From contig JAJZUZ010000001.1 in assembly GCA_021845965.1 (NCBI GenBank), forward strand, positions 56,261-120,260: a DNA stretch of 64,000 nt, written 5' to 3'. This DNA is from Pseudomonadota bacterium (GTDB taxonomy: Bacteria; Pseudomonadota; Gammaproteobacteria; Burkholderiales; Burkholderiaceae_C). The stretch's first letter is position 1. The number at the start of each line of letters is the position of its first letter. The notes under the pieces were generated by a model. It had not been told where the DNA came from. It was given only the letters and a program-made list of their open reading frames with translations, and did not search any database. The position numbers and the translations under genes were made by a program. Positions 31,722 through 62,126 of this stretch are shown here, piece by piece.

Positions 31722-31733
31722 GAAGTAACTATC

Positions 31734-33614: not shown

Positions 33615-33815
33615 GAGATCAAAAGGCTAGGATTCGATTGGCGTCTATCTCGCCCAGCGTCGCACGCTGCCGTTCCAGAAGATTCTACCGAGGCAGGTTG
33701 GCCTGAGAGCGCATCGCCTGACGATCTGGCAGAAAACTAGTCTATAATTCGGCGCTCTACGCATACGGAACTCTTTGCCCGCAGGGGTGAGTTTCGGCAG
33801 GAGATGGTCAATACT

Positions 33816-33892
33816 GGAGGTATAGCTCAGTCGGTGAGAGCGCAGGATTCATAACCCTGAGGTCGGTGGTTCAAATCCACCTACCTCCACCA
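33816..33892 (+). tRNA. tRNA with CAT anticodon (probably elongator tRNA-Met; Ile2 not excluded)
   Basis: GGAGGTA/TACCTCC acceptor stem, TAGCTCAG D-arm, TTCATAA loop, GGTTCAAATCC T-arm, encoded CCA; 77 nt. Confidence 0.93.
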
Positions 33893-45421: not shown

Positions 45422-47212
45422 ATGCTGCGGCAACAACGCGAGATCATCCTTGGATTTGTCCTGCTCTGTGCGCTGGCCCTCGGACTGATGGCCGCCCGGA
45501 CCTTGCGACCCCTTGATCTCTACCTGTATGACGTGCAGACGCGCTGGCTGCGTGCCCTGGGGCCGGGCGCCTTGCCGCAGGATGTGGTGGTGATCGGGCT
45601 GGACGAGGGGGCCTACGAATCCATCCCCGAGCCATCGGCGCTGTGGCATCGTTATCTGGGTGAGCTCATGGCGGGGCTGGCGGCCGGCCGCCCCGCGGTG
45701 GTCGGTGTGGCGGCGCCGTTGCCGGTGCGTTCCTACGACTTTCTTGTCAAGGGTATCGACGCGCCGCTGTTGGAGGGCGTGCGCCAGCTGCGTTCCACGG
45801 TGCCCCTGGTGCTGGGCCAGCCCATGGGCCTGGAGGGCCACCTGCGGCCCATCGCCCCGGAGTTGCTGGAGGCAGCGGGTCGCCAGGGCCTGAGTTCGCT
45901 CGTGCTGTGCGAGGACCGCGACGGCGTGGTGCGGCGCATCAACCAGCGTCGCTGCATTGATGAGGACCGCAACCCCTCGCTGGCCGACCAGATGGCCAAG
46001 GTGCTGGGGCGCGAGAGCTCGGCACGCGGCCTGATCGATTACACCGTGGGCGGCCCGATCGAATACATTCCCCTGCAGACGGCGCTGGGCTGGTTGCGCC
46101 AGGGGCAGGCGCAACGCCTGCACAGCCTGGTGCAGGGGCGTGTGGTGGTGATTGCGAGCCTGCTGCCCCACGAGACCCGTTATCGCCTGCCGGTGGCGCT
46201 GGCAGCCTGGGACCAGGACAGCCGCAGCGGCCCCGCGGCCCTGGTGCATGTGCAGGCCCTGCGTTCGCTGCTCGGGCGCGGGCTGGTGGACCCCGTGCAG
46301 CCGGCGCTGACCTGGTCCCTGGCCCTGGCGCTGGCACTCCTCTGGTTCGGCCGCAATGGCTGGGCCAAGACCCTGGCCCTGGTCGCCACGCTGGGCCTGC
46401 TGCTGGGCGTATCGCTGCTGGCCTTGTGGCAGGGCTGGTACCTGCCGCTGGGCAGCCTGACGGCGGTCGCGGCGCTGGCATTCATCGCGCGCCTGGCCTG
46501 GGAGTCGGCGCGGCATTACCGCGAAAAGCAGCTGCTGCGCTCGGCCTTTGCCGGTCATGTCAGCCCGCAGGTCATGCGCGCCATCCTGGGCGGACGCCTG
46601 CAACCCGATGCCGATGGCCAGCATTGCCGCGTGACCATCCTGTTTGCCGACATCCGCGGCTTCACGGCACGCAGCGAAAAGAGCACGCCGGAAGCCATGA
46701 TCAGCCTGCTCAACCGCTACTACGCCGAGATGTCGGCCGCCATCCACGGCCATGGCGGCGCCATCGACAAGTTCATCGGCGACGGACTGATGGCGACCTT
46801 CGGCGTGCCGCAGCCACTGGAGGCACCGGAGCGCAACGCGCTGGAGGCGGCGCAGGACATGCTGGTGCGGCTGGCGCGCCTGAACACCGAGCTGCAGGCC
46901 CAGGGGCAGGAGCCCTTGGCCATCGGCATCGGCGTTCATGCGGGCGAAGTGCTGGCCGGCTACGTCGGCACACGCAAGCGGCGCGATTTCACGGTGATCG
47001 GCGACCCGGTGAACACCGCCTCGCGGCTGGAGGCGCTCAGCAAGACGCTAGGCTACCCGGTGATCTGTTCGCACGAGGTGGCGACCGCGGTCGGCCAGGC
47101 GGGCGGCCTGGTCGACCTGGGTCCGCAGGCGGTCAAGGGCCGTGCCGACGTGCATGTCTGGGGCTGGAACCCGCCGCTGACGCAGCGCCTGCGGCGCAAG
47201 GGGCGCACATGA
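45422..47212 (+). CDS. CHASE2-domain class III adenylate cyclase
   Basis: DVVVIGLDE and DRDGVVRR (CHASE2), 3 TM, FADIRGFT, DKFIGDG, FTVIGDPVNTASRLE; -10-like CATAAT 6 nt before ATG. Confidence 0.9.
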   Translation: MLRQQREIILGFVLLCALALGLMAARTLRPLDLYLYDVQTRWLRALGPGALPQDVVVIGLDEGAYESIPEPSALWHRYLGELMAGLAAGRPAVVGVAAPLPVRSYDFLVKGIDAPLLEGVRQLRSTVPLVLGQPMGLEGHLRPIAPELLEAAGRQGLSSLVLCEDRDGVVRRINQRRCIDEDRNPSLADQMAKVLGRESSARGLIDYTVGGPIEYIPLQTALGWLRQGQAQRLHSLVQGRVVVIASLLPHETRYRLPVALAAWDQDSRSGPAALVHVQALRSLLGRGLVDPVQPALTWSLALALALLWFGRNGWAKTLALVATLGLLLGVSLLALWQGWYLPLGSLTAVAALAFIARLAWESARHYREKQLLRSAFAGHVSPQVMRAILGGRLQPDADGQHCRVTILFADIRGFTARSEKSTPEAMISLLNRYYAEMSAAIHGHGGAIDKFIGDGLMATFGVPQPLEAPERNALEAAQDMLVRLARLNTELQAQGQEPLAIGIGVHAGEVLAGYVGTRKRRDFTVIGDPVNTASRLEALSKTLGYPVICSHEVATAVGQAGGLVDLGPQAVKGRADVHVWGWNPPLTQRLRRKGRT

Positions 47213-47961
47213 GCGTGCTGACGCGCAACCGTCTCTATGGCTACGCGCTGATGACGTGGCTGGTGCTCACGCGCTGGCCGCGTGCGGGCGAACCGCAGCT
47301 GCGCCATGAGTTGTACCGCCAGATCCATGCCACCGGCATCGCCGCCTTGCCGGTGGCGGGCGCGCTGGCCGCGCTGACGGGGGCCGCTGCCGTCACCCAG
47401 CTCACGGCGCTGGTCGGGCAGGACAGTGATGCCGCGCAATCCTGGCTGTTCTATGGCCTGTTCTTCGAGCTGGCGCCCTTGTTATCGGCACTGGTGTTCG
47501 TGGCGCGCAGCAGCGCGGCCATGGCCTCCGAACTGGCGGTGATGAACCAGCACGATGAATTCGATGCCCTGCGGCGCATGGGCGTGGCACCGGCCGACTA
47601 CCTCCTGCTGCCGCGCATCCTGGGCATGACGCTGGCCTTGCCCACCGTCACCATCTTCTTCCAGGTCCTGTCGGTGCTCAGCGGCTGGCTGGCGGTTTCC
47701 TTGCTGCAGGGCCTGCCGCTGACGCAGGTGGCCGGTCATTTCCTCGAGCTGGCCGATCCCTGGCTGACCCTGCTCAGCCTGGTCAAGAGTGCCGTGACGG
47801 GTTTGCTCATCGCCGTCATCGCCTGCCATCATGGCAGCAGCACCGGCCGCTCCACGCGTGATCTGTCCGACACGGCGATCCACGCGGTGGGCAACGGCAT
47901 GGTGGCGGTGTTCCTGGTGGATGTGGTGGTGGCGCTGCTGGTCTATTGGGTGATGCGATGA
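47209..47961 (+). CDS. MlaE-family ABC permease
   Basis: ELAPLLSALVFVARSSAAMASEL, EFDALRRMGV, LLLPRILG; ATGA overlap with the cyclase. Confidence 0.88.
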   Translation: MSVLTRNRLYGYALMTWLVLTRWPRAGEPQLRHELYRQIHATGIAALPVAGALAALTGAAAVTQLTALVGQDSDAAQSWLFYGLFFELAPLLSALVFVARSSAAMASELAVMNQHDEFDALRRMGVAPADYLLLPRILGMTLALPTVTIFFQVLSVLSGWLAVSLLQGLPLTQVAGHFLELADPWLTLLSLVKSAVTGLLIAVIACHHGSSTGRSTRDLSDTAIHAVGNGMVAVFLVDVVVALLVYWVMR

Positions 47962-49667
47962 AGACCAGCGTGTCAGCCTGGCTCAACCGTCGCCGCGCGG
48001 CGCTGGTCTCGCTGGTGCGCCGGCTGGGCGCACGCGCCTACCTGGTCTTCGCCCTCGTCTTCACCGTGTTCATCGTCGCCGACCTCGGTCTGCTCAGCGC
48101 GGTGGCGTCGGCCGACACCAAGCTCTTCGACTCGCTGATCTCGCACCGCGTCATCCAACCCAGGCCGGACCCGGACATCGTCATCCTCGATATCGATGAA
48201 GCCAGCCTGGCCGGCATGGCCAAGGCGTACGGGCGCTGGCCGTGGCCGAACCGCGTGCTGGGCGAAATGGTGCGGGGGCTGGAGGCGCAGCAGCCGCGCG
48301 CCATCGTCTTCGACATCCTGTTCTCCGATGCCGACGTGCTGCGCCCGGACAGCGATGCCGCCTTCAACGCCGACATCGCCCGCTCGACCAGCACCTTCTT
48401 TCCCATGCTGCGCCTGGACCCGCAGAACGACCGGCTCAGCCGCATTCCGGTGGGCGCGCTGCCGGGCGCGCGGGCTGTCCGGGAACATGCCGATGCGCAG
48501 GCACCGATCGCCATCATCCTGCCCAAGGTGCCGGCGGCGCTGGACAACGGACGGCTGGGCACGCACCAGGTGACGCCGGACGCCGACGGCATCATCCGCC
48601 GCTATCCCAGCGGCATCGAGCACGCCGGCTGGCGCATCCCCGCCCTGCCGCAGCGCATTGCCGAGGAGTTCGGCTACCCCGGCACCGCGCAGAACGACGT
48701 GCTGCTCAACTGGCGCGGACCGCCTTTCACCTACCGCTATGTGTCCTTTGTCGATGTCTACCGCGATCTGAAGGCGGAGAAGAAGCAGCGTCCCGCGGAT
48801 GAGTTCAAGGGCAAGATCATCGTCATCGGCTCCACGGCGCCCAGCCTGTTCGACATCAAGGGCACGCCGATGGCGCGCATCCACCCTGGCGTGGAGGTCC
48901 TGGCCACAGCGATCGACAACTTCAAGAACGGCGACTACCTGCGCGAGCGTCCCAAGTGGGTGATGAAGCTGGCGGCCCTGCTGCTGATCTGGAGCATGGC
49001 GATCGCCCTGTACCGCCACACGCGCATCGAGGTGTTCGACAAGGTGTTTGGTGCCCTGCAGGGCGGCCTGGTGGTGCTGGCCTACGCCGTGGTCAACCTC
49101 AGCGACTGGTACCTCGATACCTCGGCGCCGCTGTCGCTGGGCCTGTCCTACTTTGCGCTGTCGCGGGTCTACTATGGCCTGTCGCGCCGCTGGCTGGCCA
49201 ACAGCCGCGTGCAGGACCTGGCGAACCTGGCCCGGGGCGAGCGCCTGCTGGCCGTCCTGGCCGTGCGGCTGGACAACGCCACCACGTCGCAGCGGCGCCG
49301 CCTCCAGAGCGATCTGGACCGTCTGGTGGCGCGCTCGCGCCATGAGGCCGGACGCATCGTGCACCTGGTGGAAGACCCGGGCTTTGTGCGCAAGGTCTTT
49401 GCCGATGCCATGCTGGTCTACTGGCTGTTCGAGGACAGGCAGGCCCACTGGCAGGAAGACGCCGACATGATCGAGGCCGGCCTGGCCGCGGCGCGCGCTG
49501 ACGAGTTCGCCAGCGGACAGCTGCGCCTCGCGCGGCGGCAGTCCGTCCTGCACTGGGACACGCCCAACGGATGGACAGTCGGTGCCTATGCCACTATTCT
49601 CGCCGCGATGCAGGACACTGCGTCTGCATCCAACGCCCCCCAACCTGATCAGGGAAACACGCCATGA
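47958..49667 (+). CDS. CHASE2-domain membrane protein with a cytoplasmic tail lacking recognisable catalytic motifs
   Basis: IVILDIDEASL, GRWPWP, FDILFSD, DADGIIRR, PGVEVLATAIDN, 3 TM. Confidence 0.85.
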   Translation: MKTSVSAWLNRRRAALVSLVRRLGARAYLVFALVFTVFIVADLGLLSAVASADTKLFDSLISHRVIQPRPDPDIVILDIDEASLAGMAKAYGRWPWPNRVLGEMVRGLEAQQPRAIVFDILFSDADVLRPDSDAAFNADIARSTSTFFPMLRLDPQNDRLSRIPVGALPGARAVREHADAQAPIAIILPKVPAALDNGRLGTHQVTPDADGIIRRYPSGIEHAGWRIPALPQRIAEEFGYPGTAQNDVLLNWRGPPFTYRYVSFVDVYRDLKAEKKQRPADEFKGKIIVIGSTAPSLFDIKGTPMARIHPGVEVLATAIDNFKNGDYLRERPKWVMKLAALLLIWSMAIALYRHTRIEVFDKVFGALQGGLVVLAYAVVNLSDWYLDTSAPLSLGLSYFALSRVYYGLSRRWLANSRVQDLANLARGERLLAVLAVRLDNATTSQRRRLQSDLDRLVARSRHEAGRIVHLVEDPGFVRKVFADAMLVYWLFEDRQAHWQEDADMIEAGLAAARADEFASGQLRLARRQSVLHWDTPNGWTVGAYATILAAMQDTASASNAPQPDQGNTP

Positions 49668-51361
49668 ACCTCTCCACGCGCTATCTCCCGGGCCTGATCG
49701 CTGGCCTGCTGGTGCTGTCCACCGGACTGACCCATGCCGCGGATCCTGCGCCGGCGGGCAAGAAGCTTGCCAAGCCGCTGGGCGGGGCGGCCCTGCTGCA
49801 GCTCGACGACGGGCGCAGCGGCCGGGGCAACCTGATCGCCACCACCGGCATCCGCGGCTTCAGCAAGCCGCCGGCCGTGGCGGCGCACGCGCTGATCATG
49901 ACCATCGGTGACTACCAGGGCAATATCCCCAAGCTCAAGGGCGTGCCCTACGACACCGCCACGGCGACCGAGATTGCGCGTCGCCTGGGCGTGCCGCCGG
50001 CCAACATCCAGGCGCTGCGCGACGACCAGCTCACGCTCGAAGGCATGCGCAAGGCCTTCGACGAGCTGGAGAGCAAGCTGGGCGGCGACGACCAGGTCTT
50101 CATCTACTACTCGGGCCATGGCGGGCGTCAGCTGGTGCAGGAGGACGGCGGCGAGCGCTGTGCCGAATCGCTGATCACGGTGGACGGCCAGCCGTTTACC
50201 GATACGGAGATGGAGCAACGGCTCAAGCGCCTGGCGGCCAGGACGCAGAAGGTCATCGTCTTTCTCGACGCCTGTCACTCCGGTGGCGTGACCACGCGCG
50301 CCGTGGGAGCCGCCGCACCGCTCTTCGCGCCCAAGTCCTACAGCGCGGGCCAGAGCTGCATCAAGCCGACGAACATCCTGACGCGCAGCATCGCGGCTCC
50401 CAAGCCGGCCGGCAGCGGCGGCGCCAACTTCATCCACATTGCTGCTGCCAGGGACAGCGAGGTCTCGCTGGACCAGCCCGGGCGCGGCGGCGTGGCCTCG
50501 CAGGCCTGGCTGGCCTGTCTGACCGGCGCCGCCCGGGACACCGACGGCAGCGGCGGCCTGTCGGCAGCGGAGATCCAGGCCTGTGCGCAGCAGCGCATCG
50601 ACGACAAGCTCCGGAACGTGCAGGGCTTCCTGCCGCACCATGTCTCGCTGACCGGCAACACGTCCATGGTGCTGAGCTACGCGGTCAAGGACAATGCGGC
50701 GGCTGATACGGCAGCGGTGCCCACGGGCACCGCACCCGCGGCGGCTCCCGTTCCGGCGCCAGTCCCGGTCCCAGTCGCGGCAGCAACGCCCTCCGCGCCG
50801 GTGGCTCCTGCGGCCGCAAGCAGGCCGTCAGCGCTTGCCGCGCTCAACGACATCTACAGCAGCCGCGATGACCGGCGGCTCGTGACGCTCACGGCCACCA
50901 AGTCGGCGCTGAAGATCGGCGTCGACACCATCGACTTCACGCTGACCTCGCGCGAGGGCGGCTACGTCTACCTGGTGATGGTGGGGTCCGATGGCGAGAC
51001 CTTCGATCTGCTGTTCCCGAACCAGATCGACCGCAACAACCTGATTGAGCCCGGCGGCACCATGCGCCTGCCGCGGCCGGCCTGGCAGCTCACCGCCGAA
51101 GGCCCGCCCGGCAAGGACACGCTGCTGGCCATCGTGACCGACAACCCGCGTGACTTCGGCGCCGCCGGCCTCAAGCCCGCCGGCCCGTTCTCGGTGGTCG
51201 AGGCCGTGGCCGCCAAGGACATCCAGCTGGTCACCACCGGCGCCGCGCAAGCGCCGGCCGCGGAATGTGCCAACCCGGCCAGCACGCGCAACATTGCCAT
51301 CAAGAAGCGCTGCTCGACCGGCTACGCGGCTGCGCTGCTGACGATCGAAGAGGTGCGCTGA
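49664..51361 (+). CDS. Exported caspase-family (peptidase C14) protease with C-terminal DUF4384-like domain
   Basis: Signal peptide (..THA), FIYYSGHGG and FLDACHSG dyad, Ala/Pro linker, GGYVYLV...LLFPN...GPPGKD. Confidence 0.88.
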   Translation: MNLSTRYLPGLIAGLLVLSTGLTHAADPAPAGKKLAKPLGGAALLQLDDGRSGRGNLIATTGIRGFSKPPAVAAHALIMTIGDYQGNIPKLKGVPYDTATATEIARRLGVPPANIQALRDDQLTLEGMRKAFDELESKLGGDDQVFIYYSGHGGRQLVQEDGGERCAESLITVDGQPFTDTEMEQRLKRLAARTQKVIVFLDACHSGGVTTRAVGAAAPLFAPKSYSAGQSCIKPTNILTRSIAAPKPAGSGGANFIHIAAARDSEVSLDQPGRGGVASQAWLACLTGAARDTDGSGGLSAAEIQACAQQRIDDKLRNVQGFLPHHVSLTGNTSMVLSYAVKDNAAADTAAVPTGTAPAAAPVPAPVPVPVAAATPSAPVAPAAASRPSALAALNDIYSSRDDRRLVTLTATKSALKIGVDTIDFTLTSREGGYVYLVMVGSDGETFDLLFPNQIDRNNLIEPGGTMRLPRPAWQLTAEGPPGKDTLLAIVTDNPRDFGAAGLKPAGPFSVVEAVAAKDIQLVTTGAAQAPAAECANPASTRNIAIKKRCSTGYAAALLTIEEVR

Positions 51362-51363
51362 GC

Positions 51364-51978
51364 GTGGCCTTTTCCGCCGCCATGCAGCAGCGCCAGCTGG
51401 TGTTGAGCCGTGCCGGGCAGGTGCTCCTGTCCCTGCCGCTCGACCAGGGCGGCAGCTATCGCGTGGTGGCGCCCGACCTGGCCGCCATCGAGGCGGCCGT
51501 GGCGGCGCTGGAGCGCGTGCCTGGGGTGTCCGTGCTGCCTGCCAGCGGCGGTCTGCTGGGGGCGATGACGGTCTCCGCCAACCTGTCGCTCGCCTTGTGC
51601 CATGGCCAGGAGGTTGACGCCGCGACCTTGCGCGAGTGGGAGAGCCGGCTCGAACTCGCGCTGGATCTGTGCGGTGTGAGCGCCCAGCGGCTGCGCACGC
51701 TGGGGCGCGAGCTGCCCATGCACATGGACCCCATGGAACGCTGGCGGGTGGGGCTGGTGCTGCGCGTGATGCGGCCGGCCGAGCTGCTGGTGCTGGACCG
51801 TGCGTTTGCCGGGCTGTCGCGGCGCCAGGCCGGCAGCGTGCTGACGCTGGTGTCGGTCTACCAGGAGTTCCACCCTTTCCGTCCGGTACTGTTCGTCGAC
51901 CTGGATACGCATGGTCTGCCGGCCATTGACGGGTGTCGCGAGACCGTAGAAATCGAGGGAGTTGCATGTCCATCCTGA
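51364..51978 (+). CDS. Degenerate MlaF-like ABC ATPase domain
   Basis: SGGLLGAMTVSANL, ELPMHMDPMERWRVGL and ELLVLDRAFAGL align by eye with ABC Q-loop, signature and Walker B regions; no Walker A. Confidence 0.7.
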   Translation: MAFSAAMQQRQLVLSRAGQVLLSLPLDQGGSYRVVAPDLAAIEAAVAALERVPGVSVLPASGGLLGAMTVSANLSLALCHGQEVDAATLREWESRLELALDLCGVSAQRLRTLGRELPMHMDPMERWRVGLVLRVMRPAELLVLDRAFAGLSRRQAGSVLTLVSVYQEFHPFRPVLFVDLDTHGLPAIDGCRETVEIEGVACPS

Positions 51979-52907
51979 TCGAACAGGACAGTGAAGTCGC
52001 GCTGTTGCACCGCGGTACGCGGCGCTTTCTGCTGGCCGGCCTGCTGGCGACGGTGGCCATTGTTGCGGCGATCTTCGTGCGCCAGGGCCTGCTGCGGCAG
52101 ACCTCGACACTCAATTTCGTCACCGAGTCGGCGCAGGACATCAGCAAGGGGCAGGCCGTCAAGATCGCCGGTTTCAAGGTGGGGGCGGTGGACGCGGTCA
52201 CATTGCGCCCCGACGGCAAGGTGGCGGTCGAGCTGGAGGTTGATGCGGATTCGATGCGCTTTGTCACCCGCGACGCCGTGATCGAGCTGCGCAAGGAAGG
52301 CCTGGTCGGATCCGCCATCCTGGAGATCACGCCGGGCCCGGACCGCACCCGGCTGGCAGCCAATGGTGCGCAGCTGGCTTTCTCGCGGTCCGACAGTCTC
52401 ACGGCCACCATCAACAGCCTGCGCGACCGCATCCTTCCCATCCTGGGGGACGTCAAGGTCATCACCGGCACGCTGGCCGATACCCAGCGCGGGCTGCCCG
52501 CGACACTGGGCCAGGTACACGAGGCCACGGCCTCGCTCAACACCCTGCTCAAGACCGGCAACGAGCAAATGAGCAACGTGGGGCAGGCGGCCACCCGCGC
52601 CGTGGGGCAGGCGGACGCCAGCTTGCAGCAACTGGACAAGACGCTCACCACGGTCAACAGCCGCCTGCCCGGCATGCTGGACAAGGCGCAGGGCATCGTC
52701 GAGCATATCGAACGCATCACCGCGGAGGCGGAGGTGACCGTGCCGCCGCTGATGCAGGACGGCAAGGCCGCGGCGGCCGATGTGCGCGAGATCCTGACCG
52801 GCGCCAAGACCGCCTGGCCGATCAAGGAGCTGGTCGAGGCGCCGGCGCCGCAACCACTCAAGGCGGACAGCGATCCGCATGCGGAGGCCGGTCGTGTGGC
52901 GCGCTAG
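51966..52907 (+). CDS. MlaD/MCE-domain protein with long helical extension
   Basis: N-terminal TM, GQAVKIAGFKVGAV, EGLVG..LEITPG, heptad-like C-terminus. Confidence 0.9.
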   Translation: MSILIEQDSEVALLHRGTRRFLLAGLLATVAIVAAIFVRQGLLRQTSTLNFVTESAQDISKGQAVKIAGFKVGAVDAVTLRPDGKVAVELEVDADSMRFVTRDAVIELRKEGLVGSAILEITPGPDRTRLAANGAQLAFSRSDSLTATINSLRDRILPILGDVKVITGTLADTQRGLPATLGQVHEATASLNTLLKTGNEQMSNVGQAATRAVGQADASLQQLDKTLTTVNSRLPGMLDKAQGIVEHIERITAEAEVTVPPLMQDGKAAAADVREILTGAKTAWPIKELVEAPAPQPLKADSDPHAEAGRVAR

Positions 52908-53736
52908 GCCAGGCATCGCCCTGCTGCTGGCTGCACTGCTGGCGGGCTGCGCGTCGTCGTCCAGGCCGCCACCCGAGCCACGCCTGCGCCTGCAGGCGCA
53001 GGACGCCGAGGCCAGCGGGGCGCGCCGCTACGCCCAGGGCGAGTACCTCGCTGCCGCGCAGCACTTTTCCGAGGCACTGCGCCTGCGCCTGAGTCTGGAC
53101 GACGTGCCCGCCGCCGCGCGCAATCGCCTGCAGCTGGCGCAGACCCGGCTGGCTCTGGGGCAGGCGCAGCTGGCGCTGGACGAGGCGACCCAGGTGCAGG
53201 ACAAGGGCTTGCAGCTTGCCGCCGGTTTGCTGCAGGTCCAGGCCCGGCTGGCGCTCGGGCAGGTCGATAGTGCGCGCCAGCAGCTGGTGCCGCTGGAGGC
53301 CGCGTGCCCGGCCGCCTGCCCGGAGCGTGGCCGTGTGCTGCTGCTGCAGGCGCGCACCGCCTGGGCAGCGGGTGATGTGGCGCAGACGGTGCGGCTGTGC
53401 ACGGCGGCCCAGCCCCTGCTGCGCGAGCGCGGCGAGGAGCGCGAAGCGGCCAATGCGTCCCGCCTGCTGGCTGCGGCGCAGCTGCAGAGTGGCGATGCCG
53501 CAGCGGCGCTGAGCGCGGCGCAGGCGGCATTGGCCATCGATCGCCAGCTGGCGTTGCCGGAGAAGATTGCCCGCGACTGGCTGCTGATTGGTGACATCCA
53601 GCGCCTCAGCGCGGGGGTATCGCATGGTGTTGATGCCCGGGCGGCCTATCTGCGTGCGCGCACCGTGGCGCAGGCGGCCCGTTTGAATGACTTGACCCAA
53701 CTCGCCGAACAGGCATTGCAGGAGACCTCGCGATGA
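52894..53736 (+). CDS. TPR-like lipoprotein
   Basis: LLAALLAGC lipobox, Ala/Leu-rich helical repeats; start could be 52879. Confidence 0.75.
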   Translation: MWRARPGIALLLAALLAGCASSSRPPPEPRLRLQAQDAEASGARRYAQGEYLAAAQHFSEALRLRLSLDDVPAAARNRLQLAQTRLALGQAQLALDEATQVQDKGLQLAAGLLQVQARLALGQVDSARQQLVPLEAACPAACPERGRVLLLQARTAWAAGDVAQTVRLCTAAQPLLRERGEEREAANASRLLAAAQLQSGDAAAALSAAQAALAIDRQLALPEKIARDWLLIGDIQRLSAGVSHGVDARAAYLRARTVAQAARLNDLTQLAEQALQETSR

Positions 53737-54587
53737 AGAAACACGCCCGCCGACTCTGCGTCGGATTGCTGTTGCTGTCCCTGGTGCTGCGCGCGCAGGC
53801 GCAGGCCGCGCAGGCTGCCCCCTTGGCGGCCGCACCCGCAGCCGGGGACCAAGCGGAGGAAGTGCAGCCGAAGTTCTTCATCTGGGGCCTGCTGCTGAAC
53901 GTGGCGCTGAAATTCGCCATGAACGCCTTTACCGAGTGGCGTCAGCAGAAGCTCACCAACGACCTCACGCCGATCAACTACAAGAAGCTGCTGCTGAACT
54001 CCGCCACGGCCGGCCTGATCTCCACGGCCGGCGGTGCGGTGGGCAGCCTGTTCGGCTTCAAGTCGGTGGGTGCCGAGGAAAACACGGTCGCGAACCTGCC
54101 CACCAAGCCGATCCAGCTGCAGAACGGCCAGCCCAACTACCAGGGCGCGCACGTGGCCATCGTGGCCTTCGATCGGGCGGGAAACCCGGTGGGCCTGCGG
54201 CCGGTGACGGCGGGCTTTCGCACCGGCGACCGCATCAAGCTCAAGGTGCTGCCCACCTTCGATGCGCTGGTGGTGATCGACAACATCAATCCGCAGGGCA
54301 AGCGGCAGCAGATCTATCCGCCCGCCGCGGATCAGGCCATCTCGCTCAAGGCCGGCGTGGAGGTGCTGCTGCCGCTGCGCGAAGACCAGTTCTTCGAATT
54401 TGCCGGCGTGACGGGTGACGAGCAGCTCGTCATCACCTTGCGCGACCCGCGGGCGGCGGGCGCGGCCGAATCCAAGGTCGAGGTGAGCCGCAAGGATGAG
54501 GACACCGGATCGAGCTTCGTGCAGGAGACGGCGCCGGGTACCTACCCGGTGATCGCGCAGTCGTTGAAGCTGCGACACGAGCGCTGA
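53733..54587 (+). CDS. Exported protein with DUF4384-like C-terminal domain
   Basis: Signal peptide; GFRTGDRIKL, NINPQG..QIYP, FEFAGVTGDEQL. Confidence 0.7.
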   Translation: MKKHARRLCVGLLLLSLVLRAQAQAAQAAPLAAAPAAGDQAEEVQPKFFIWGLLLNVALKFAMNAFTEWRQQKLTNDLTPINYKKLLLNSATAGLISTAGGAVGSLFGFKSVGAEENTVANLPTKPIQLQNGQPNYQGAHVAIVAFDRAGNPVGLRPVTAGFRTGDRIKLKVLPTFDALVVIDNINPQGKRQQIYPPAADQAISLKAGVEVLLPLREDQFFEFAGVTGDEQLVITLRDPRAAGAAESKVEVSRKDEDTGSSFVQETAPGTYPVIAQSLKLRHER

Positions 54588-54627
54588 GGGCAAAGCGCCA
54601 GGTTCAACTCGGCGGATGCGGCGGATG

Positions 54628-54699
54628 CGGCGGAACGGGCTTAGCCCGGCTGCTGGCGTCGTCCCCTCAGGGAGAAGCCGCGCAGCGGCTCAGAGGGGG
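54628..54699. repeat. REP-like palindromic element between convergent genes
   Basis: GGAACGGGCTTAGCCCGG..CTGGCGTCGTCCCCT..AGCCGCGCAGCGGCT..AGGGGG, similar layout to the 34792 element. Confidence 0.5.
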
Positions 54700-54705
54700 A
54701 TCGGG

Positions 54706-57700
54706 TTACCGTCCCGGGTCGCCGTACAGCGCGTACGGTGCCCAGAAGGCCGGGTGCGCATAGGCCATGACGGCGCGGCCCTGGCCGTCCTTGGCCGTGT
54801 CGGTGTCGATCAGGTCCAGCATGGCGCGGCGCAAGGCCTGCGCGCGTGTGAGCTGCGGGTCCTTGGCGTAACGCTCGAACAGGTGCGTCACCAGCTCGCG
54901 CGCCGACACCGTCTCCACCGGCCAGTGCGTGGCCAGCACCGAGCGCGCCCCGGCGTAGAAAAAGCCGCGCCCCAGACCTGATACCGCCTCGGCGCCGGTG
55001 CCGTCGGCCGCCGCCGTGTTGCAGGCCGACAGCACCACCAGGTCGGCATCGAGCGATAGCTTGAGGATGTCTTCCAGCTTGAGCAGGCCCGCGGTGATGG
55101 GCTGGCCCGGCGCCGGCGAGAGCGCCAGCGCCGGCTGGTCCAGGCCCGGCAGATCGCCGGCGATCAGGCCATGGGTGGCAAAGGCCACGATACGACGGCG
55201 CTTGAGGTCAGCGCCCAGCACGTTCTGCCGGTTCGCCTGTGCGCCGAAATAGGCATCGCGCTGGGGGTTGGCCGCCAGCGCGGTGGCAATGGCGGTGATC
55301 TCCTCGCGCGTGTCGGGTAGCGCCGTCAGGGTGGGGGCCTCCGGTACGGCCGGCGGCGGCGCGACGGGCGCATCAGCGCTGGTCTGGTTCTCGTCCCAGG
55401 TGGGGGCGTGCTTGATCTTGAGGTTGCGGGTGCCGCTGGCCACGACACGTTGTGCGCCGCGGGTGCTGTTGCCATCGGTCTGGGCGCCGAAGTCCGGATC
55501 GCCGAAGCCCACAAAGGGATCGCGCCGGCTCTGCGTCGCCGGCAAGGCGCGCAGCGTGACCAGGGCGCTGACCGAGGGCAGGTAGGCCACCGCCACTTTG
55601 CGCGCCAGCCACGGTACCTGCCGGTACTGCGCCATGGGCAGGCCGGGCGCTGCCTGCGTCGCAGCGGCGGCACCGGTGGGCAAGAGCGAGAAGGGTATCT
55701 GGCCCAGCGCGTCGTTGGCCACCACCAGCAGCGTGTCGGCCTGCGCCCAGGCCTGCTCGACCGGCGCCAGCAGTTCCTGGTACAGGGCCGCCCCGGCTTC
55801 CAGGTCAAAGCGCAGGCGGTCGAAACTGGCCCCGGTGGTCAGGTCCACCGAATCGCGCAGGCGCTTGACCTGCGCGGCCACCCAGTCCGGCTTCTGCGGG
55901 CTGAAGTGGAAGTGCAGCTCGCCCTGCGGACCCGTGGCCCAGACGTAGCTGCCCACGGGCGTGACGTAGACCGAGAGCAGGGCCTCGTTGGGCTTGAGCG
56001 CACGGCGCGTGGTGGCCAGATCGGCCGGCCGCGGGTTGACCAGGTTGTCGTACTGCGGGAACTGGCGCCGGATGTCGACCAGGTCGCGCTGCTGCTGCTT
56101 CTGGAGTTCGGCGATGCGCTGCTCCATGGCCTTGATGACGGCGGGCAGCTGGCGCTCGGGCGGGGCCGAGCGTTGCGTGATCAGGTTCTTGTAGACCGCC
56201 TGCAGCTCGTCGTCGGCATCCTGCACCTGCTTGATCTTGGCGCCCAGTTCGGGCGAGCCGGCGGCCGCGCGCAAGGCGGAGCCGGCCAGCGCCTTTTGTA
56301 CGCTCTGCCAGCGCGCCACATCGGCGACCCGGAAGGCCTCGGCAGTGTCGCCTGCCGTGCGCGTGCCCTTGTTGCCGACCAGCACATTGAGGTATTCGTT
56401 GAGGATCAGGCGCAGTCGGTTGGAACGTGCGACGCTGGCTCCGCTCTTGCCCACGACTTTGTCCGGGTCGGTGAGCACGACAAGGGCCGAGGCAAATTCC
56501 TTGCGCGCGTCATCCACGCGGCCCAGGCGGTGCAAGGCCATGGCACGGTAGGCACGGGCCTCGGCCGCGCGGTAGCTGTCGGCACCGTAGTTGCGGGTAT
56601 CGTGCGCGAACAGGCTATCGCCGTCGCGCAGGGCGTCGGCGTAGCGGCCGACCTGGATGTAGGCTCGGATCGAGAGCAGGGAGCCCTGGCCGAAGCCTGT
56701 TTCCATGCGGATGTCACCGGCCACCCTGTCGCGGATCGCATCGAACAGTGCCACGGCCTCGGTCGCACGGCCCGAGGCTGTCAGGGCATTGGCCAGAATG
56801 ACGCGACCGTTCAACCGGGCCGGGCTGGTTTCGGAAAAGCCGGCTTCTGTCAGGGCGCGTTCGGCCCATTCGGCCAGTACCGCCGCCTCGGCGTAACGGC
56901 CACGCTGGGTGGACACCTGTGCGAGCGTCCACAATGCACGGCCCGTGATGAAGGAGTTGCGGCCGTTGTGTATCAGGGAACTCTCCAGAACCTCGCGCGT
57001 GAGCAACTCCGCTTCGTCCAGCCGCTGCTGCTGGATGAGAACGCTGGCCAGAAACAGCCGGGTCCCGTTGTTGCGCGAGTAGATACGATCGATTGGAATC
57101 TCAAACGGCCGGTCGGGGGTGTTTCCACCATTGAGTTCGAGATTCCTCTCACCCTGGCGAATCGCAGCCAGATAGGCGCGCTCGGCGTCATCAAGCTTGC
57201 CTTCGTGGGCCAGCAGAAAGCCACGCGCCGTTTCAAGGAGCTGCTGGAAATGGGGCAAGCGTCCGCTCAGGCGAGGGCGGTTTGCAAGGCCCTGGTACAT
57301 CCCGTCAGCACGGGCCATGGCGGCGCGCGCGTTGTCCAAGTCACCAAGATGGACGTAGTTGGTAATGATATGAAAGTGGCTGGTCAGCAGCAGGCCGGCG
57401 TCCTGCGGCTTCGTGGGATCCAGCTCTGATGCCTGTGCGAGCACGGCGTCTTGCGACGCCGCGATGCTCTTGGAGAACCACAGGCTTATGGCGTGCTCGA
57501 AGCGTACGCGAAATGCACCCCCCAGGGCCATAGGCTGGAGGTGGGACTGCTGCGCGTAGGGGAGCGCTTTTTCCAGATACTCGGTGCGTTTTCGAACCTC
57601 CTGCAGCTCTTCAGCGATCAGTGCCTTTGCGTGCCAGGCTCGTGCCAGATCTGCCGGGTCAGAGGTCGATGGGATGGGGGTGTCCAAAGCTGCGTGCAGT

Positions 57701-57900
57701 TTGCGCACCCGTTCCACATCGGGCTGGTAGCTGCGCAGCAGCAGCACCAGGTCGGCGATGGTCGGCGGCGGCGGGCGCGACGTGTCGATGACTGGCAGCA
57801 CGGGGGCGCTGGCAGCCGGCGCAGGCGCTGCGACCTGGGCCGAGATGTTGACGGACAGTCCCGCCAGCAGCAGGGCCGCGAGGCGTTTGATCTTGTGCAT
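54706..57900 (-). CDS. Exported TPR + CHAT-domain (caspase-like) protease
   Basis: Signal peptide, TPR-like helices, LGQIPFSLL, FGDPDF, LPDTREE, FATHG (His), LSACNT (Cys), HPAFWAPY. Confidence 0.9.
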   Translation of the reverse strand: MHKIKRLAALLLAGLSVNISAQVAAPAPAASAPVLPVIDTSRPPPPTIADLVLLLRSYQPDVERVRKLHAALDTPIPSTSDPADLARAWHAKALIAEELQEVRKRTEYLEKALPYAQQSHLQPMALGGAFRVRFEHAISLWFSKSIAASQDAVLAQASELDPTKPQDAGLLLTSHFHIITNYVHLGDLDNARAAMARADGMYQGLANRPRLSGRLPHFQQLLETARGFLLAHEGKLDDAERAYLAAIRQGERNLELNGGNTPDRPFEIPIDRIYSRNNGTRLFLASVLIQQQRLDEAELLTREVLESSLIHNGRNSFITGRALWTLAQVSTQRGRYAEAAVLAEWAERALTEAGFSETSPARLNGRVILANALTASGRATEAVALFDAIRDRVAGDIRMETGFGQGSLLSIRAYIQVGRYADALRDGDSLFAHDTRNYGADSYRAAEARAYRAMALHRLGRVDDARKEFASALVVLTDPDKVVGKSGASVARSNRLRLILNEYLNVLVGNKGTRTAGDTAEAFRVADVARWQSVQKALAGSALRAAAGSPELGAKIKQVQDADDELQAVYKNLITQRSAPPERQLPAVIKAMEQRIAELQKQQQRDLVDIRRQFPQYDNLVNPRPADLATTRRALKPNEALLSVYVTPVGSYVWATGPQGELHFHFSPQKPDWVAAQVKRLRDSVDLTTGASFDRLRFDLEAGAALYQELLAPVEQAWAQADTLLVVANDALGQIPFSLLPTGAAAATQAAPGLPMAQYRQVPWLARKVAVAYLPSVSALVTLRALPATQSRRDPFVGFGDPDFGAQTDGNSTRGAQRVVASGTRNLKIKHAPTWDENQTSADAPVAPPPAVPEAPTLTALPDTREEITAIATALAANPQRDAYFGAQANRQNVLGADLKRRRIVAFATHGLIAGDLPGLDQPALALSPAPGQPITAGLLKLEDILKLSLDADLVVLSACNTAAADGTGAEAVSGLGRGFFYAGARSVLATHWPVETVSARELVTHLFERYAKDPQLTRAQALRRAMLDLIDTDTAKDGQGRAVMAYAHPAFWAPYALYGDPGR

Positions 57901-58010
57901 GACGCGGGTCTCCCGGGTGCGGTGTACGGCCCATGATAGCGGCCGGCTTCGATTGGCTACACTCGCCCGACAGTGCCGCCCGCCAAATCCTTCACATCCA
58001 CGTCCAACCC

Positions 58011-59177
58011 GTGACTGCCGCGTTGCTTTCCCGTCTCAGCCGCTCCGGCGCGCCGCGCTGGCTGGTGGCGCTCGGTCTGTGCGCCGCTTTGACAGGGGTG
58101 GATGCTTGGCTGCGTGCCCCTGTGCCGGCGGCGCCCCGTGCTGCCTGGCCAGGTGGTGCCGCGCAGGCGGGGGGGACCCTGATGCTGCAGTCGGCCGGGC
58201 GCATCCCCATGCCGCCCGGCGCCGCCGCGGCCCATGCCAGCAGCCTGCTCGCGCTGCCATCGGACCAGCCTGCGGTGCTGCAGGCCTACTGGTTTGCCGG
58301 CTCGCGCGAGAGCGGGCCGGATGTGCAGATCGCCATGTCGCAGTTCGATCGCGCGACCCAGCAATGGAGTCCGGCCCGCTATGTGGTGAACCGCGACCAG
58401 GCGGGCGCAGAGCTGGGCTTCGGGCTGCGTCGTCTGGGCAACCCGGTGGCCTGGCGTGACGGGCAGGGGCGCATTCATCTCTTCGTGGTGGCCACGGGGC
58501 TGGGCGGCTGGTCGGCCGGACGCATCCTGCATCTGCGTCAGGACGGGCCGCAGCAACCCTTCCGGCCGCTGCGCGTGCTGCCGCTGTCCTGGCTGTGGGA
58601 TACCAGCCATCTGGTGCGTGCCATCCCGCTGCCTCTGGCCGATGGCGGCATGATGCTGCCGGTGTACTTTGAGCTCGGCATGAAGTACCCGCTGCTGTTG
58701 CGTTTCGATGCGCAGGGCGAGTTCCGCGGCATGGTGCGCATGTCGCAGCGGCGCGACCTCTTGCAGCCCACGCTGCTGGCGCAGAGCGAGACGCAATGGC
58801 TGGCATTGCTGCGCGACAACCGGCCGGATCGCCGCGTGCGTGCGGTGCAGACCCACGATGGTGGCCTGAGCTGGCAGGACCTGCCCGACCCCGGCCTGCC
58901 CAACCCCGATGCGTCGCTGGTCGGCTTGAGTCTGCGGCCCGATCTCATGTTCCTGGCCCACAATCCGCACCCCGAATCGCGCGCGCAGCTGGCACTGAGC
59001 CGCTCCACCGATGGCCTGCACTGGACGCAGCTGGAGTTGCTGGCGCAGGGTGAGGAGCGCAGCGAGTTTTCGTACCCGTCCCTGGCCTGGGTCGACGGCA
59101 GCCTGTGGGTCAGCTACACCGAGCAGCGGCGCGCCATTGCCTGGCAGCGCTTTGCCTTCGTGCCGGCGGCGCGCTGA
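58011..59177 (+). CDS. BNR/Asp-box (sialidase-like) beta-propeller protein
   Basis: AHAS, WFAGSRE, GNPV, THDGGLSW and STDGLHW Asp-boxes, FSYPS. Confidence 0.8.
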   Translation: MTAALLSRLSRSGAPRWLVALGLCAALTGVDAWLRAPVPAAPRAAWPGGAAQAGGTLMLQSAGRIPMPPGAAAAHASSLLALPSDQPAVLQAYWFAGSRESGPDVQIAMSQFDRATQQWSPARYVVNRDQAGAELGFGLRRLGNPVAWRDGQGRIHLFVVATGLGGWSAGRILHLRQDGPQQPFRPLRVLPLSWLWDTSHLVRAIPLPLADGGMMLPVYFELGMKYPLLLRFDAQGEFRGMVRMSQRRDLLQPTLLAQSETQWLALLRDNRPDRRVRAVQTHDGGLSWQDLPDPGLPNPDASLVGLSLRPDLMFLAHNPHPESRAQLALSRSTDGLHWTQLELLAQGEERSEFSYPSLAWVDGSLWVSYTEQRRAIAWQRFAFVPAAR

Positions 59178-59190
59178 GAAGGCATTGATC

Positions 59191-59835
59191 ATGGAGTCGA
59201 CATCCTTGCTGCCATCCCTGCTGTCCACGCAGACCCCCTTGTCGCCGGCGCCGGGTGTGGCGCAGGTTTACCTGTCAGTCAGCTGGGCGCTGGTGCTGGC
59301 GGGCCTTTCCGTCATGCTCCTGCAGCGCCGGGTGGCGGATCGGCGCGTGGCGCGGGGCCTGCCCCTGCTGCTCCTGCTGGCCTGTCTGCTGCCAGGCATG
59401 GCCTCGCCGGCCTACTGGCTGGGGCTGGCGTTTCGCGCACCCAGCCTGCTGTCGACGTTGCTGTGCACGCTGGTGCTGCTGGGGCATTACCGCCCGCAGC
59501 TCGCCGCTTCGGCATGGTTCGATGAATTGCGCCGCGGGGCCCCGGCGTTCGTGCTGCTGGGCTGGGTACTGCTGCTCGACACCTTGGCCTTGTCGCCGTT
59601 CAGCCTGTATGCGCTGGGCTTTGCACCGCTGGCGCTGGGCGTTGCGGTCCTGCTTGGCCTGCTGCCCTGGCTGCTGCGCGGTGAGTGGCCCCTGTCGGCG
59701 CTGATCGTGACAAGCTGCGCGCTGTATGTGATCCTGCGCCTGCCCAGCGGCAACGTCTGGGACGCGCTGATCGACCCCTGGCTGTGGCTCGTGGTGCAGG
59801 CGGGCTGGCTGCGTCGCCTGCTGCGGCGTCACTGA
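59191..59835 (+). CDS. Hypothetical multi-pass membrane protein
   Basis: Hydrophobic; LYALGF and GNVWDALIDPWL motifs. Confidence 0.7.
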   Translation: MESTSLLPSLLSTQTPLSPAPGVAQVYLSVSWALVLAGLSVMLLQRRVADRRVARGLPLLLLLACLLPGMASPAYWLGLAFRAPSLLSTLLCTLVLLGHYRPQLAASAWFDELRRGAPAFVLLGWVLLLDTLALSPFSLYALGFAPLALGVAVLLGLLPWLLRGEWPLSALIVTSCALYVILRLPSGNVWDALIDPWLWLVVQAGWLRRLLRRH

Positions 59836-61604
59836 GTCCGGGCGAGCAGCCACTCGCGCCGGAACAGCCAGTCCTGCGGATACCAGACGTTGTCCAGGCG
59901 CACCTCACCGGGCAGGTGGCGGCTGGTCAGCAGCCAGCGTTCGCCGAGCACACGGCATTGCGGCCGGCAGGGCGGCGTGTTTTGCGCGCGGTCGTGCTGG
60001 ATCCAGACCACGGCCTCGTGGGTGGCCAGCAACTCCTGCAGTTCCTCGGCAGGGGTCGGTGGGGGGACACCCGGCGTGCGGCGGGCCAGGGCGCGGGCGC
60101 CGGTCTCGTAGGGCAGGAACTGGTGCGGGCCGGGGAGCAGGAACTGAAAACGCTCGAACTGGGCGTTGAAGCCGTTGGGGACGGCGATGCGGCCCGGCGG
60201 CGTGGCGACGATGGTTGGCACGCCGTAGCGGCCCACCGGCCCATCCATGGGGGCCACCGTCAGGTCGAAGGCTGCGTAGACGAGCAGCGTGACCAGCACG
60301 GCAGCGCCGCGGGTCCAGGCAGGGCGTAGCAGGCCGGCGAGCGCCACTGCCATGCCGCCGGCCACCACCAGCGTGGCCTGCAGAAACTCCGGCGTCGACG
60401 AGAGTTCCAGCGCATGGCCGACCCAGGCAATGCGCGCGATCATGGCCAGCGCGCCCGCGGCCAGCAGCAGCGTGGGCATGAACCAGCCGCGTGCCAGGTC
60501 GCGCCAGTGCAGCGCGAGCAGCATGGCGACCGCCGGCATGGCGGGTATCACGTAGCGCGCCGAGCGCTGGCTCGGGAACAGGAAGACCAGCAGCCAGACC
60601 AGCGCCCAGGCCAGCAGGATGGCGGTATGCGGCGACAGCGGCCAGGCCTTGCGTGCCTGCGGCAGGCGCTTGGCGCCGAGCCAGGCCAGACCCAGCGTCG
60701 CCGCGAAGAGCAGGCCGGCATTGACACCATAGGCCAGCAGCTGCGACCAGATGCTGGAGCCGCTGAGCGCGAAGGCCTCCTGCCACCAGCCGCGCTGGTC
60801 GTGGAACTTGGCGGCGTTCTCCGCCAGGATGAATTCGCGCCACACCGCCTGCGGATCCGGGTCCAGCACGAACCACAGGCCGAACACGCCCAGGGCAATG
60901 ACGGCACTGACACCCACGCGCAGCGTGTGCCGCCAGAGCGCCTGCCAGCTTGGATGCGACTCGCTGGCGACCAGGGCCAGCCACCAGGCCGCAGCGGCGG
61001 GGGCGATGAGCGCGAAGGACTTGTAGGCCAGGCCGAGGCCCAGGCCGAGGCCGAAGAGGGTGTGCGCAATCCAGCCGGGACTGGCCGCGGGCAGGCGCGC
61101 GCGCAGCCAAAGCAGCGCGAACAGCGGCAGGCTGAACCAGAAAGTCTCGGGCGCGCTGGTGAGGTAGGGGCGGCCGTAGCGGAAGGTGCTCAGGAACGAG
61201 AGGAAGATGGCGGCGGCCAGCAGGCCCTCGCGCCAGCGCTGTGTGACGGCGCGCAGGCACAGCACGATGGCGGCGCCCGCCAGCAGCAGGTAGAGCAGGC
61301 TGGGCGTGCGCAGGGCCGCCACGCTCCAGTGCTCGCCCCAGCCGCCGGCCACCATGGCCTGCCAGAACAACATGGGGGGTTTGGTGTTGCGTGTATCGAC
61401 CAGTTCGGAGGCCAGCGGCAGCCAGTGTCCGGTCTCGGCGGTCTTGCGCGCGATGTGGGTGTAGACCAGCTCGTCGCCGTTGGTGGGTGCGTACTGGCCG
61501 TCCAGGCCAAAGACGTAGGCGAAGGCGGCCAGCAGCAGGAGCAGCGCCCAGAAGGCGGTGTGGTGCCGCTCGGGAGTCGGGGAGGGTGATTGCATGGCGG
61601 ACAT
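59829..61604 (-). CDS. ArnT/PMT-like (GT-C) lipid-carrier glycosyltransferase
   Basis: NGDELVY, TKPPMLFW, ALRTPS, LAYKS, RYVIPAMP; many TM helices. Confidence 0.85.
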   Translation of the reverse strand: MSAMQSPSPTPERHHTAFWALLLLLAAFAYVFGLDGQYAPTNGDELVYTHIARKTAETGHWLPLASELVDTRNTKPPMLFWQAMVAGGWGEHWSVAALRTPSLLYLLLAGAAIVLCLRAVTQRWREGLLAAAIFLSFLSTFRYGRPYLTSAPETFWFSLPLFALLWLRARLPAASPGWIAHTLFGLGLGLGLAYKSFALIAPAAAAWWLALVASESHPSWQALWRHTLRVGVSAVIALGVFGLWFVLDPDPQAVWREFILAENAAKFHDQRGWWQEAFALSGSSIWSQLLAYGVNAGLLFAATLGLAWLGAKRLPQARKAWPLSPHTAILLAWALVWLLVFLFPSQRSARYVIPAMPAVAMLLALHWRDLARGWFMPTLLLAAGALAMIARIAWVGHALELSSTPEFLQATLVVAGGMAVALAGLLRPAWTRGAAVLVTLLVYAAFDLTVAPMDGPVGRYGVPTIVATPPGRIAVPNGFNAQFERFQFLLPGPHQFLPYETGARALARRTPGVPPPTPAEELQELLATHEAVVWIQHDRAQNTPPCRPQCRVLGERWLLTSRHLPGEVRLDNVWYPQDWLFRREWLLARTQ

Positions 61605-61634
61605 CGGGCCGGCGCATGCCGGCTGTGTCCGCAA

Positions 61635-62126
61635 TTATGGCGTGCGCTTGTGGCGGAAGGTCCAGCGGTCGTTGGCGATGAAGTTGCTGACGCTGGCGAT
61701 CACGATGGCCGTGACGTTGGCCAGCAGATAGTGCATGAAGTGCGTGAGCGTCAAGGTGAGCCCGTATTGCAGCAGGATGCCGATCCAGGAGGCCGTGGCG
61801 TACTGTCCCAGCTGGGCAAGCAGGCCGCGTTTGCTCAGGCGCTCGCCTTCCTGCACCGCGGTGGCGTGCAGGCGGTCCGACCAGGTCCACAGGCGGTTCC
61901 AGGTGAAGTTGTTCACCGTGGCCACGGCAATGGCCAGCGCGAGCGAGAAATAGGGTTTGCTGCCCATCGGTTCGATGGTGCGAAACAGGTATTCATGCGC
62001 CCCATAGAGCACGGCCAGATTCACCACCGTGCCGCTGGCGCCGACGATGCCGAAGCGCACGTAGCGAAAGCTGTGCAGCCAGTCGATCAGCTGCCAGAGT
62101 CGGTCACGCAGGGAAGGGGAGCTCAT
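61635..62126 (-). CDS. GtrA-family putative flippase
   Basis: RFGIVGASGTVVN, NNFTWNRLWTW, NFIANDRWTF. Confidence 0.88.
   Translation of the reverse strand: MSSPSLRDRLWQLIDWLHSFRYVRFGIVGASGTVVNLAVLYGAHEYLFRTIEPMGSKPYFSLALAIAVATVNNFTWNRLWTWSDRLHATAVQEGERLSKRGLLAQLGQYATASWIGILLQYGLTLTLTHFMHYLLANVTAIVIASVSNFIANDRWTFRHKRTP

Follow-up and report, generated by a model that had tools for sequence, protein, structure and literature searches.

What does a bacterium do with an operon in which the genes of a lipid-transporter-like complex are interleaved with those of a receptor cyclase and of caspase-like proteases? The question is raised by positions 45422 to 57900 of the 64,000-nucleotide stretch of contig JAJZUZ010000001.1 that we analysed (the window). 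An earlier note on this DNA had proposed one machine, in which an Mla module and a periplasmic protease cascade act together on CHASE2 receptors to make cyclic AMP (cAMP). We found that the conserved unit is smaller than first proposed. It consists of an MlaE-family permease, an ATPase-fold protein stripped of its ATP motifs (the pseudo-ATPase), a needle-type MCE protein of 313 amino acids (aa) and a TPR lipoprotein, and this module belongs with the tripartite MCE systems as a real variant that has apparently not been described before.

A conserved core with a motif-less ATPase

The analysis began from nine genes, for which an open reading frame check and Pfam agreed with the starts, junctions and catalytic residues given in the earlier note; the fifth gene was assigned by structure. 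The genes are as follows.

45422..47212, + strand: CHASE2 domain, membrane helices and class III nucleotide cyclase, 596 aa (Pfam CHASE2 and Guanylate_cyc); frequent partner of the core, invariably immediately 5' of mlaE where linked
47209..47961, + strand: MlaE-family permease, 250 aa, five hydrophobic segments, coupling-helix region kept (PF02405, E 6.9e-44); core
47958..49667, + strand: second CHASE2 membrane protein, 569 aa (Pfam CHASE2), with a predicted degenerate GGDEF/cyclase-like C-terminal domain; accessory
49664..51361, + strand: caspase-like C14 protease with DUF4384, predicted exported, 565 aa, His152/Cys204 (Pfam Peptidase_C14 and DUF4384); accessory
51364..51978, + strand: pseudo-ATPase of MlaF-type ABC fold, 204 aa (no Pfam family; structure model); core
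51966..52907, + strand: single-MCE-domain protein with long helical extension, PA3213-like, 313 aa (Pfam MlaD, PF02470, E 2.7e-14); core
52894..53736, + strand: predicted TPR lipoprotein with LAGC lipobox (TPR_12, E 2.5e-5, below the curated cut-off); core
53733..54587, + strand: DUF4384 protein, predicted exported, 284 aa (Pfam DUF4384); accessory, travels with the caspase
54706..57900, - strand: TPR-CHAT protease, predicted exported, 1064 aa, His910/Cys960 (Pfam TPR and CHAT); convergent, loosely linked

The AlphaFold model of the fifth gene product (pLDDT 87.8) has the ABC nucleotide-binding fold, and its top Foldseek match is MlaF (6xbd, E 3.5e-9). The protein lacks Walker A, the Q-loop Gln, LSGG, the Walker B Glu and the H-switch. 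Among 100 core-linked nucleotide-binding domains none carried Walker A, [LM]SGG or the Walker B DE, and the Q-loop Gln and switch His were also substituted in the aligned examples. The degenerate MlaF described in the earlier note was therefore borne out, as an MlaF-like fold whose ATP motifs are lost throughout the family. Conserved best is the segment after the Q-loop, which, from ABC structures, we take to be the permease-facing surface. In 10 of 10 genome pairs the ratio of non-synonymous to synonymous substitution rates (dN/dS, simple counting method) was 0.15-0.32. Because purifying selection persists despite the lost motifs, the protein is, as judged from its sequences, a maintained pseudo-enzyme. 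Since both Walker A and the signature are gone, the established ABC mechanism would leave it without a complete ATP site even when paired with an active MlaF. Decay of the ATPase gene into a pseudogene was considered as well, and is ruled out by the intact frames and a dN/dS below 0.33.

Across loci, MlaE and the MCE domain remain intact and conserved; the window MlaE and MlaD proteins score under the NCBIfam cut-offs for MlaE and MlaD. For the MCE protein the longest single match in the PDB was 13hr, a 312-aa MCE protein (positions 52-279, E 1.6e-13). Its C-terminal motif was strongly conserved in 42 diverse copies (W284 in 42, P293 and L298 in 41 each, D301 in 40), and the lipobox Cys of the TPR lipoprotein was invariant (42/42). 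This lipoprotein was modelled as an all-helical superhelix of the LGN/Rap type, which is a peptide-binding type. In PA3213 and PqiB, MCE C-terminal peptides dock on outer-membrane lipoproteins (PMC13631591). Compared with an ATP-driven MCE transporter, the module has the MlaE-family permease and a membrane-anchored MCE protein (hydrophobic segment 20-38). It retains the fold of the ABC ATPase without its Walker A, signature and Walker B, and has the TPR lipoprotein in place of MlaA/MlaC or a PqiC-like (DUF330) outer-membrane partner.

How widely is this core kept? An alignment of 40 of the 120 listed pseudo-ATPase homologues, searched against GTDB genomes, gave 55 genome loci labelled Hylemonella, Curvibacter, Sulfuritalea and other Betaproteobacteria. 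With tblastn, MlaE was found at 52 of these, the MCE gene at 52, the cyclase at 49 and the TPR gene at 48; the genes missed in this search fell at contig ends or were recovered by open reading frame clustering. The accessory genes were much rarer, namely the caspase at 13, the second CHASE2 gene at 12 (excluding two further 24% matches that were cross-matches to the cyclase), the DUF4384 gene at 9 and CHAT at 7. A metagenome scan was seeded with 21 of 150 listed sequences, picked for a shared motif and for the lack of Walker A. In the 80 loci kept from 284 confirmed ones we again found the pseudo-ATPase, MCE, TPR and MlaE genes, in two further gene orders. MlaE, MCE and TPR genes were all present in 93 of the 137 loci examined. 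Every locus was reached through the pseudo-ATPase, so that cores without this gene are invisible to the survey, and the loci are related, with near-copies included and no dereplication. Read within these bounds, the co-occurrence of the genes in other genomes that the earlier note anticipated lies far above chance.

Source names, taken from an identical MCE protein or its 90% cluster, gave a taxon in 5 of 10 look-ups; the named carriers are Sideroxydans sp. CL21 and Dissulfurispira thermophila, besides Nitrospirae and Syntrophorhabdaceae. The core is kept in three phyla (Pseudomonadota, Nitrospirota, Syntrophorhabdaceae). Within the genus, 11 of 44 genomes carried the module. A narrow pseudo-ATPase profile yielded no clear member apart from the source genome in 400 genomes of the phylum, and the module is thus rare. 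A broad profile returned ordinary ABC ATPases and no new member from 400 genomes of the class, and when a profile was run against the full library, 65 clusters lay at E <=1e-10, shading into ordinary ATPases. Most loci are surrounded by housekeeping genes. At the Nitrospirota-type loci L177, L185 and L187, which have no adjacent cyclase, a divergent Crp-family gene is present. At two of these (L177:864-8930 and L185:725-8958) the core and the Crp-family gene diverge, and beyond the latter lie genes of the FlgT-like, CsgG-like, SLH, DUF4384 or caspase kind.

In the window, the genes overlap by 4 nucleotides (ATGA) at 47209, 47958, 49664 and 53733, by 13 at 51966 and by 14 at 52894, and are separated by a 2-nucleotide gap at 51364. 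The operon lies a short way past groES-groEL and has the G+C content (GC) of its surroundings; a promoter and terminator scan of the locus gave hits at chance level (2 versus 0.9; 5 versus 5.1). The source genome, which is 83% complete, encodes two further MlaE systems, both with intact ATPases, one being a canonical mla operon on the same contig.

CHASE2 receptors and predicted exported proteases

The cyclase of the window combines CHASE2, membrane helices and a cyclase domain with an intact residue set (D410, K450, D454, D528, N531, R535), in which we take D, D, N and R to be catalytic and K and D to select ATP. A CHASE2-cyclase gene lies directly upstream of mlaE in 64 of the 89 evaluable loci, in two gene orders, and keeps this place after rearrangement of the operon, so the tie between cyclase and Mla-like genes asserted in the earlier note holds. 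The catalytic residues are less constant. Among 68 linked cyclases, both metal Asp residues were kept in 23 and one or both were lost in 45; D, D, N and R were all kept in 9, whereas on the same contigs every CHASE2 cyclase not linked to the core kept them (5/5). Loss of the Asn or Arg alone need not abolish cyclase activity, while loss of a metal Asp should. In the genome set, 35 of 47 full-length cyclases have Gly at D410; in a quick tree they form one well-supported branch, from which the caspase cassette is absent too. Distant loci supplied 21 linked cyclases, in which the motifs had decayed in other ways. The degenerate domains are nevertheless under purifying selection (dN/dS 0.08-0.36).

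Two close genomes, G601 and G627, carry the operon with the caspase and second CHASE2 genes and have no cyclase at the locus; PF00211 (class III cyclase) was not found in either genome (94% complete). Because the cyclase is mostly degenerate, and absent from the searches of these two genomes, cAMP is not an output common to all modules. Beside these two, the second CHASE2 gene occurs at the 12 genome loci given above. Its product ends in what structure prediction suggests is a degenerate GGDEF/cyclase-like fold (template modelling score 0.60-0.66), a lead only, and hhalign of this tail with the neighbouring cyclase gave no match. Complex prediction for the CHASE2-cyclase with MlaE and the pseudo-ATPase scored 0.38, versus 0.37 in a control with MlaE replaced. 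A further class III cyclase-like gene, predicted soluble, lies at L071:5638-7332 (G000:C36), divergent from a stand-alone cyclic nucleotide (cNMP)-binding protein, in a genome with 10 cNMP-binding matches.

We then consider the proteases, which the earlier note had taken to be exported parts of the system. Their dyads are kept in all aligned copies (caspase His152/Cys204 in 14/14, CHAT His910/Cys960 in 7/7). To judge export signals, the N-termini were inspected by eye and by hydropathy (threshold 1.6); the DUF4384 and CHAT proteins showed peaks there, and the caspase and TPR proteins had values below 1.6. Six non-catalytic Cys residues of the caspase are invariant (14/14), compatible with a periplasmic protein, and two conserved motifs of the form TR[AGS], at 212 and 241, could be self-cleavage sites. 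Of the loci, 55 were well flanked, with 3 kb or more on either side; over up to 10 kb each way, 12 of these had a C14 or CHAT gene and 43 had neither; the chance of such a gene per 20 kb is roughly 0.7-2.1% (five genomes). These associations span several lineages and differing protease families. The window-type caspase-DUF4384 gene precedes the pseudo-ATPase gene in the source genome and at the distant loci L170, L181 and L182, a second C14 family occurs near 8 genome loci and L168, and L185 is surrounded by caspase-SLH, WD40-caspase and TPR-CHAT genes. Predicted exported caspases hence do recur beside the module, as the earlier note would have it, while the majority of loci do without them. 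CHAT is no fixed partner: it adjoins 7 of 55 genome loci, and a related CHAT occurs in 24 of the 44 genomes of the genus, more than carry the module.

Is there a functional tie between protease and cyclase? Both metal Asp residues are kept at all 10 genome loci that have the cassette and a full-length cyclase, a link that tracks one clade. None of the cassette-specific [TSA][RK][GSAN]x sites in the cyclase, TPR and DUF4384 proteins was convincing. One such site in the MCE protein was found in 8 of 13 cassette-bearing loci versus 0 of 39 others and is confounded with clade. DUF4384 is one class of the C-terminal domain of Csx30, the domain cut by the CHAT protease Csx29 (10.1101/2022.08.17.504292), and by this analogy DUF4384 as a bait or substrate may be regarded as a fair lead. 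The DUF4384 profile gave no match in the PDB, and the likeness to Csx30 is therefore that reported in the paper.

Protease and DUF4384 genes were also seen in other settings. L196:4877-15996 (G634:C12) has no MCE genes and encodes a CHASE2-cyclase, a caspase-FGE-sulfatase, a second caspase, ShlB and a two-partner secretion protein; G635 has a comparable cyclase-C14-C14 run. At L008:11896-14904 and L009:620-13781, DUF4384 genes adjoin those of tubulin-like (PF13809) proteins, and at L009 genes for a caspase, CHAT and OmpA are present too, while MCE genes were not found there.

The operon is bordered at window positions 57933-63370 by genes for a BNR-repeat protein, a membrane protein, a PMT-like glycosyltransferase, GtrA and a family-9 glycosyltransferase. 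Most of this block also flanks the operon in L011, L013, L019, L068 and L069, and in L068 the BNR gene lies immediately 3' of the DUF4384 gene. Farther upstream, window positions 28695-33892 have a lower GC (0.57-0.59), contain TPR and glycosyltransferase-like genes and end at a tRNA-Met gene, possibly as an inserted island.

Possible readings: bridge, conduit, cascade or scaffold

The reading to which we incline, tentatively and with somewhat less than even confidence, is that of an MCE bridge that spans the envelope, works without ATP and is coupled to a CHASE2 receptor; cAMP would be one of its outputs, and an optional one. By analogy with PA3211-PA3214 of Pseudomonas aeruginosa, MlaE and the pseudo-ATPase would hold the base of an MCE hexamer that extends a helical needle through the periplasm. 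At the outer membrane, the TPR lipoprotein would receive the conserved C-terminal peptide of the MCE protein. The bridge might be altered by tension, by detachment or by the binding of a hydrophobic molecule, and the CHASE2 receptor would read the alteration. The output would be cAMP in the source genome; in most relatives the cyclase domain would be non-catalytic and would serve for binding or dimerisation. As for the caspase, DUF4384 and CHAT proteins, they would likely be optional periplasmic add-ons that feed into the bridge or are held by it. Ordinary lipid transport is covered elsewhere in the genome, by the two further MlaE systems whose ATPases are intact. In Sinorhizobium meliloti, CHASE2 cyclases do act downstream of an outer-membrane receptor (PMC7529298, PMC13001267).

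Several points weigh against such a bridge. The coupling is seen in the genes, and adjacency alone is no proof of contact. At 25 of the 89 evaluable loci no cyclase lies beside mlaE, and the core must therefore do something without it. In the linked cyclase at L168:7047-8015, beside mlaE, CHASE2 and the catalytic residues are lost, with membrane helices and cyclase fold kept. The ABC part of the TagQRST system requires ATP hydrolysis, and its neighbours were not pulled down (PMC13713981). Our counts moreover overstate independence, the loci being related and including near-copies.

In a bolder form, which we consider doubtful, an MCE transporter would have turned into a non-transporting signalling bridge. 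The dead ATPase would dock the receptor cyclase or pseudo-cyclase on the inner side, the needle would be held on the outer side by the TPR lipoprotein, and interchangeable caspases, exported and with DUF4384 as bait, would be the trigger. If true, this would be the first MCE system in trans-envelope signalling, and would provide a pathway for exported bacterial caspases. In the machine of the earlier note, a periplasmic caspase/CHAT cascade would make a signal that CHASE2 receptors read on the MCE/TPR scaffold, with cAMP as the output and an attack on the envelope by phage, predator or type VI secretion as a candidate trigger. As one obligatory machine it is not supported, given the 43 of 55 protease-free loci, the 45 of 68 cyclases lacking a metal Asp, and G601 and G627, which keep the caspase while a class III cyclase was not found. 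We judge it distinctly unlikely. The excess of C14/CHAT genes over the rough chance level, in several lineages and families, the metal Asp pair kept at all 10 genome loci with the cassette and a full-length cyclase, and the place of DUF4384 among the classes of the Csx30 domain that Csx29 cuts, speak for it. Against these stand the rarity of D, D, N and R in linked compared with unlinked cyclases, the restriction of the link between Asp pair and cassette to one clade, and the want of a convincing cassette-specific cleavage site, the MCE site being clade-confounded.

The chief rival to the receptor-coupled bridge is a passive, ATP-independent conduit for a lipid or other hydrophobic molecule, in which the pseudo-ATPase would do no more than stabilise MlaE, and the conduit would be regulated by the cyclase or Crp genes or carry a cargo to which these respond. 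We consider this possible, if somewhat unlikely. Intact and conserved MlaE and MCE domains, the quarter or so of evaluable loci (25/89) with a core and no adjacent cyclase, and the membrane glycosylation genes bordering the operon at several close loci would all suit a conduit, and passive routes do exist among envelope lipid transporters (PMC13631591). However, the TPR lipoprotein models as a peptide-binding superhelix and not as a PqiC-type pored ring, and the coupling to a receptor gene at 64 loci is unexpected of a plain conduit. The same peptide-binding fold would suit an assembly scaffold that positions or hands over exported proteins (caspases, DUF4384 proteins, CsgG/FlgT-like lipoproteins) and is no sensor, and L177 and L185 indeed adjoin CsgG-like, FlgT-like, DUF4384, SLH and caspase genes; yet most loci lie amid housekeeping genes with no such clients nearby, and we hold this function to be improbable. 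Very improbable, finally, is that a canonical MlaF acts in trans to drive what would otherwise be an ordinary ATP-dependent MCE transporter, as MceG does for mycobacterial Mce. Two intact MlaF-type ATPases are encoded elsewhere in the genome, but the pseudo-ATPase, under selection and with its permease-facing segment kept, likely fills the docking site, and both halves of the composite ATP site are missing from it. The loci having been found through the pseudo-ATPase gene, the survey covers cores that have kept it.

Relation to known systems

We found no description of the combination of CHASE2, MCE, caspase, DUF4384, TPR and dead MlaF in the literature covered, supplements and most subscription papers being outside its scope. 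The words 'cyclase' and 'TPR' do not occur in the main text, as available, of two MCE surveys (10.1101/064360, PMC5561183); the neighbourhood tables of PMC5561183 could hold the module. An exported caspase linked to an MCE operon is likewise absent from the available parts of PMC3501461 and 10.1101/2022.08.17.504292. Signal-peptide-like N-termini had been recorded for many C14 proteins in 2012 (PMC3501461). The module shares with these exported caspase homologues and with Csx29/Csx30 the intact C14 and CHAT dyads and the link of DUF4384 to proteases and Csx30 (PMC3501461; 10.1101/2022.08.17.504292), but unlike Csx29/Csx30 it has no CRISPR effector in its operon.

Among signalling systems, NsrA-CyaK/CyaD1/CyaD2-Clr of S. 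meliloti resembles the module in its CHASE2 receptor cyclases, which there are switched via an outer-membrane partner by a proteinaceous signal (PMC7529298, PMC13001267). That partner is a beta-barrel, however, there is no MCE module, and the cyclases are active, whereas those of the module are mostly degenerate. In TagQRST-PpkA of P. aeruginosa, similarly, a membrane enzyme acts downstream of a lipoprotein and of an ABC-like complex, there for the sensing of envelope damage (PMC13713981). In contrast to the module, TagT must hydrolyse ATP, no MCE protein takes part, and the output is a kinase triggering a type VI secretion system. VipB of that secretion system was not found in the 83% complete source genome, which, together with the lost ATPase motifs, speaks against a sensor of the TagQRST type. 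The module offers a handle on what switches CHASE2 receptors and on what exported caspase-like proteases do.

Among transporters, MlaFEDB-MlaC-MlaA shares the MlaE and MlaD Pfam families with the module, and MlaF gives the top fold matches of the pseudo-ATPase; the module operon differs by the lack of mlaB, mlaC and mlaA, by its long MCE helix and by its scores under the NCBIfam cut-offs. Characterised single-domain MCE systems of like layout are described as ATP-driven transporters. A dead motor subunit kept across three phyla shows that MlaE-MCE complexes either can function without ATP or can be put to a new use in signalling. The closest known system is the tripartite MCE system PA3211-PA3214 of P. 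aeruginosa (PMC13631591; PDB 13hr). Both have a permease, an ATPase-fold subunit, an elongated single-MCE protein (312 versus 313 aa) with a conserved tail, and a lipoprotein. Unlike PA3211-PA3214, the module has a motif-less ATPase, its lipoprotein is predicted to form a TPR superhelix instead of a PqiC/DUF330 ring, and its permease gene is coupled to that of a CHASE2 cyclase.

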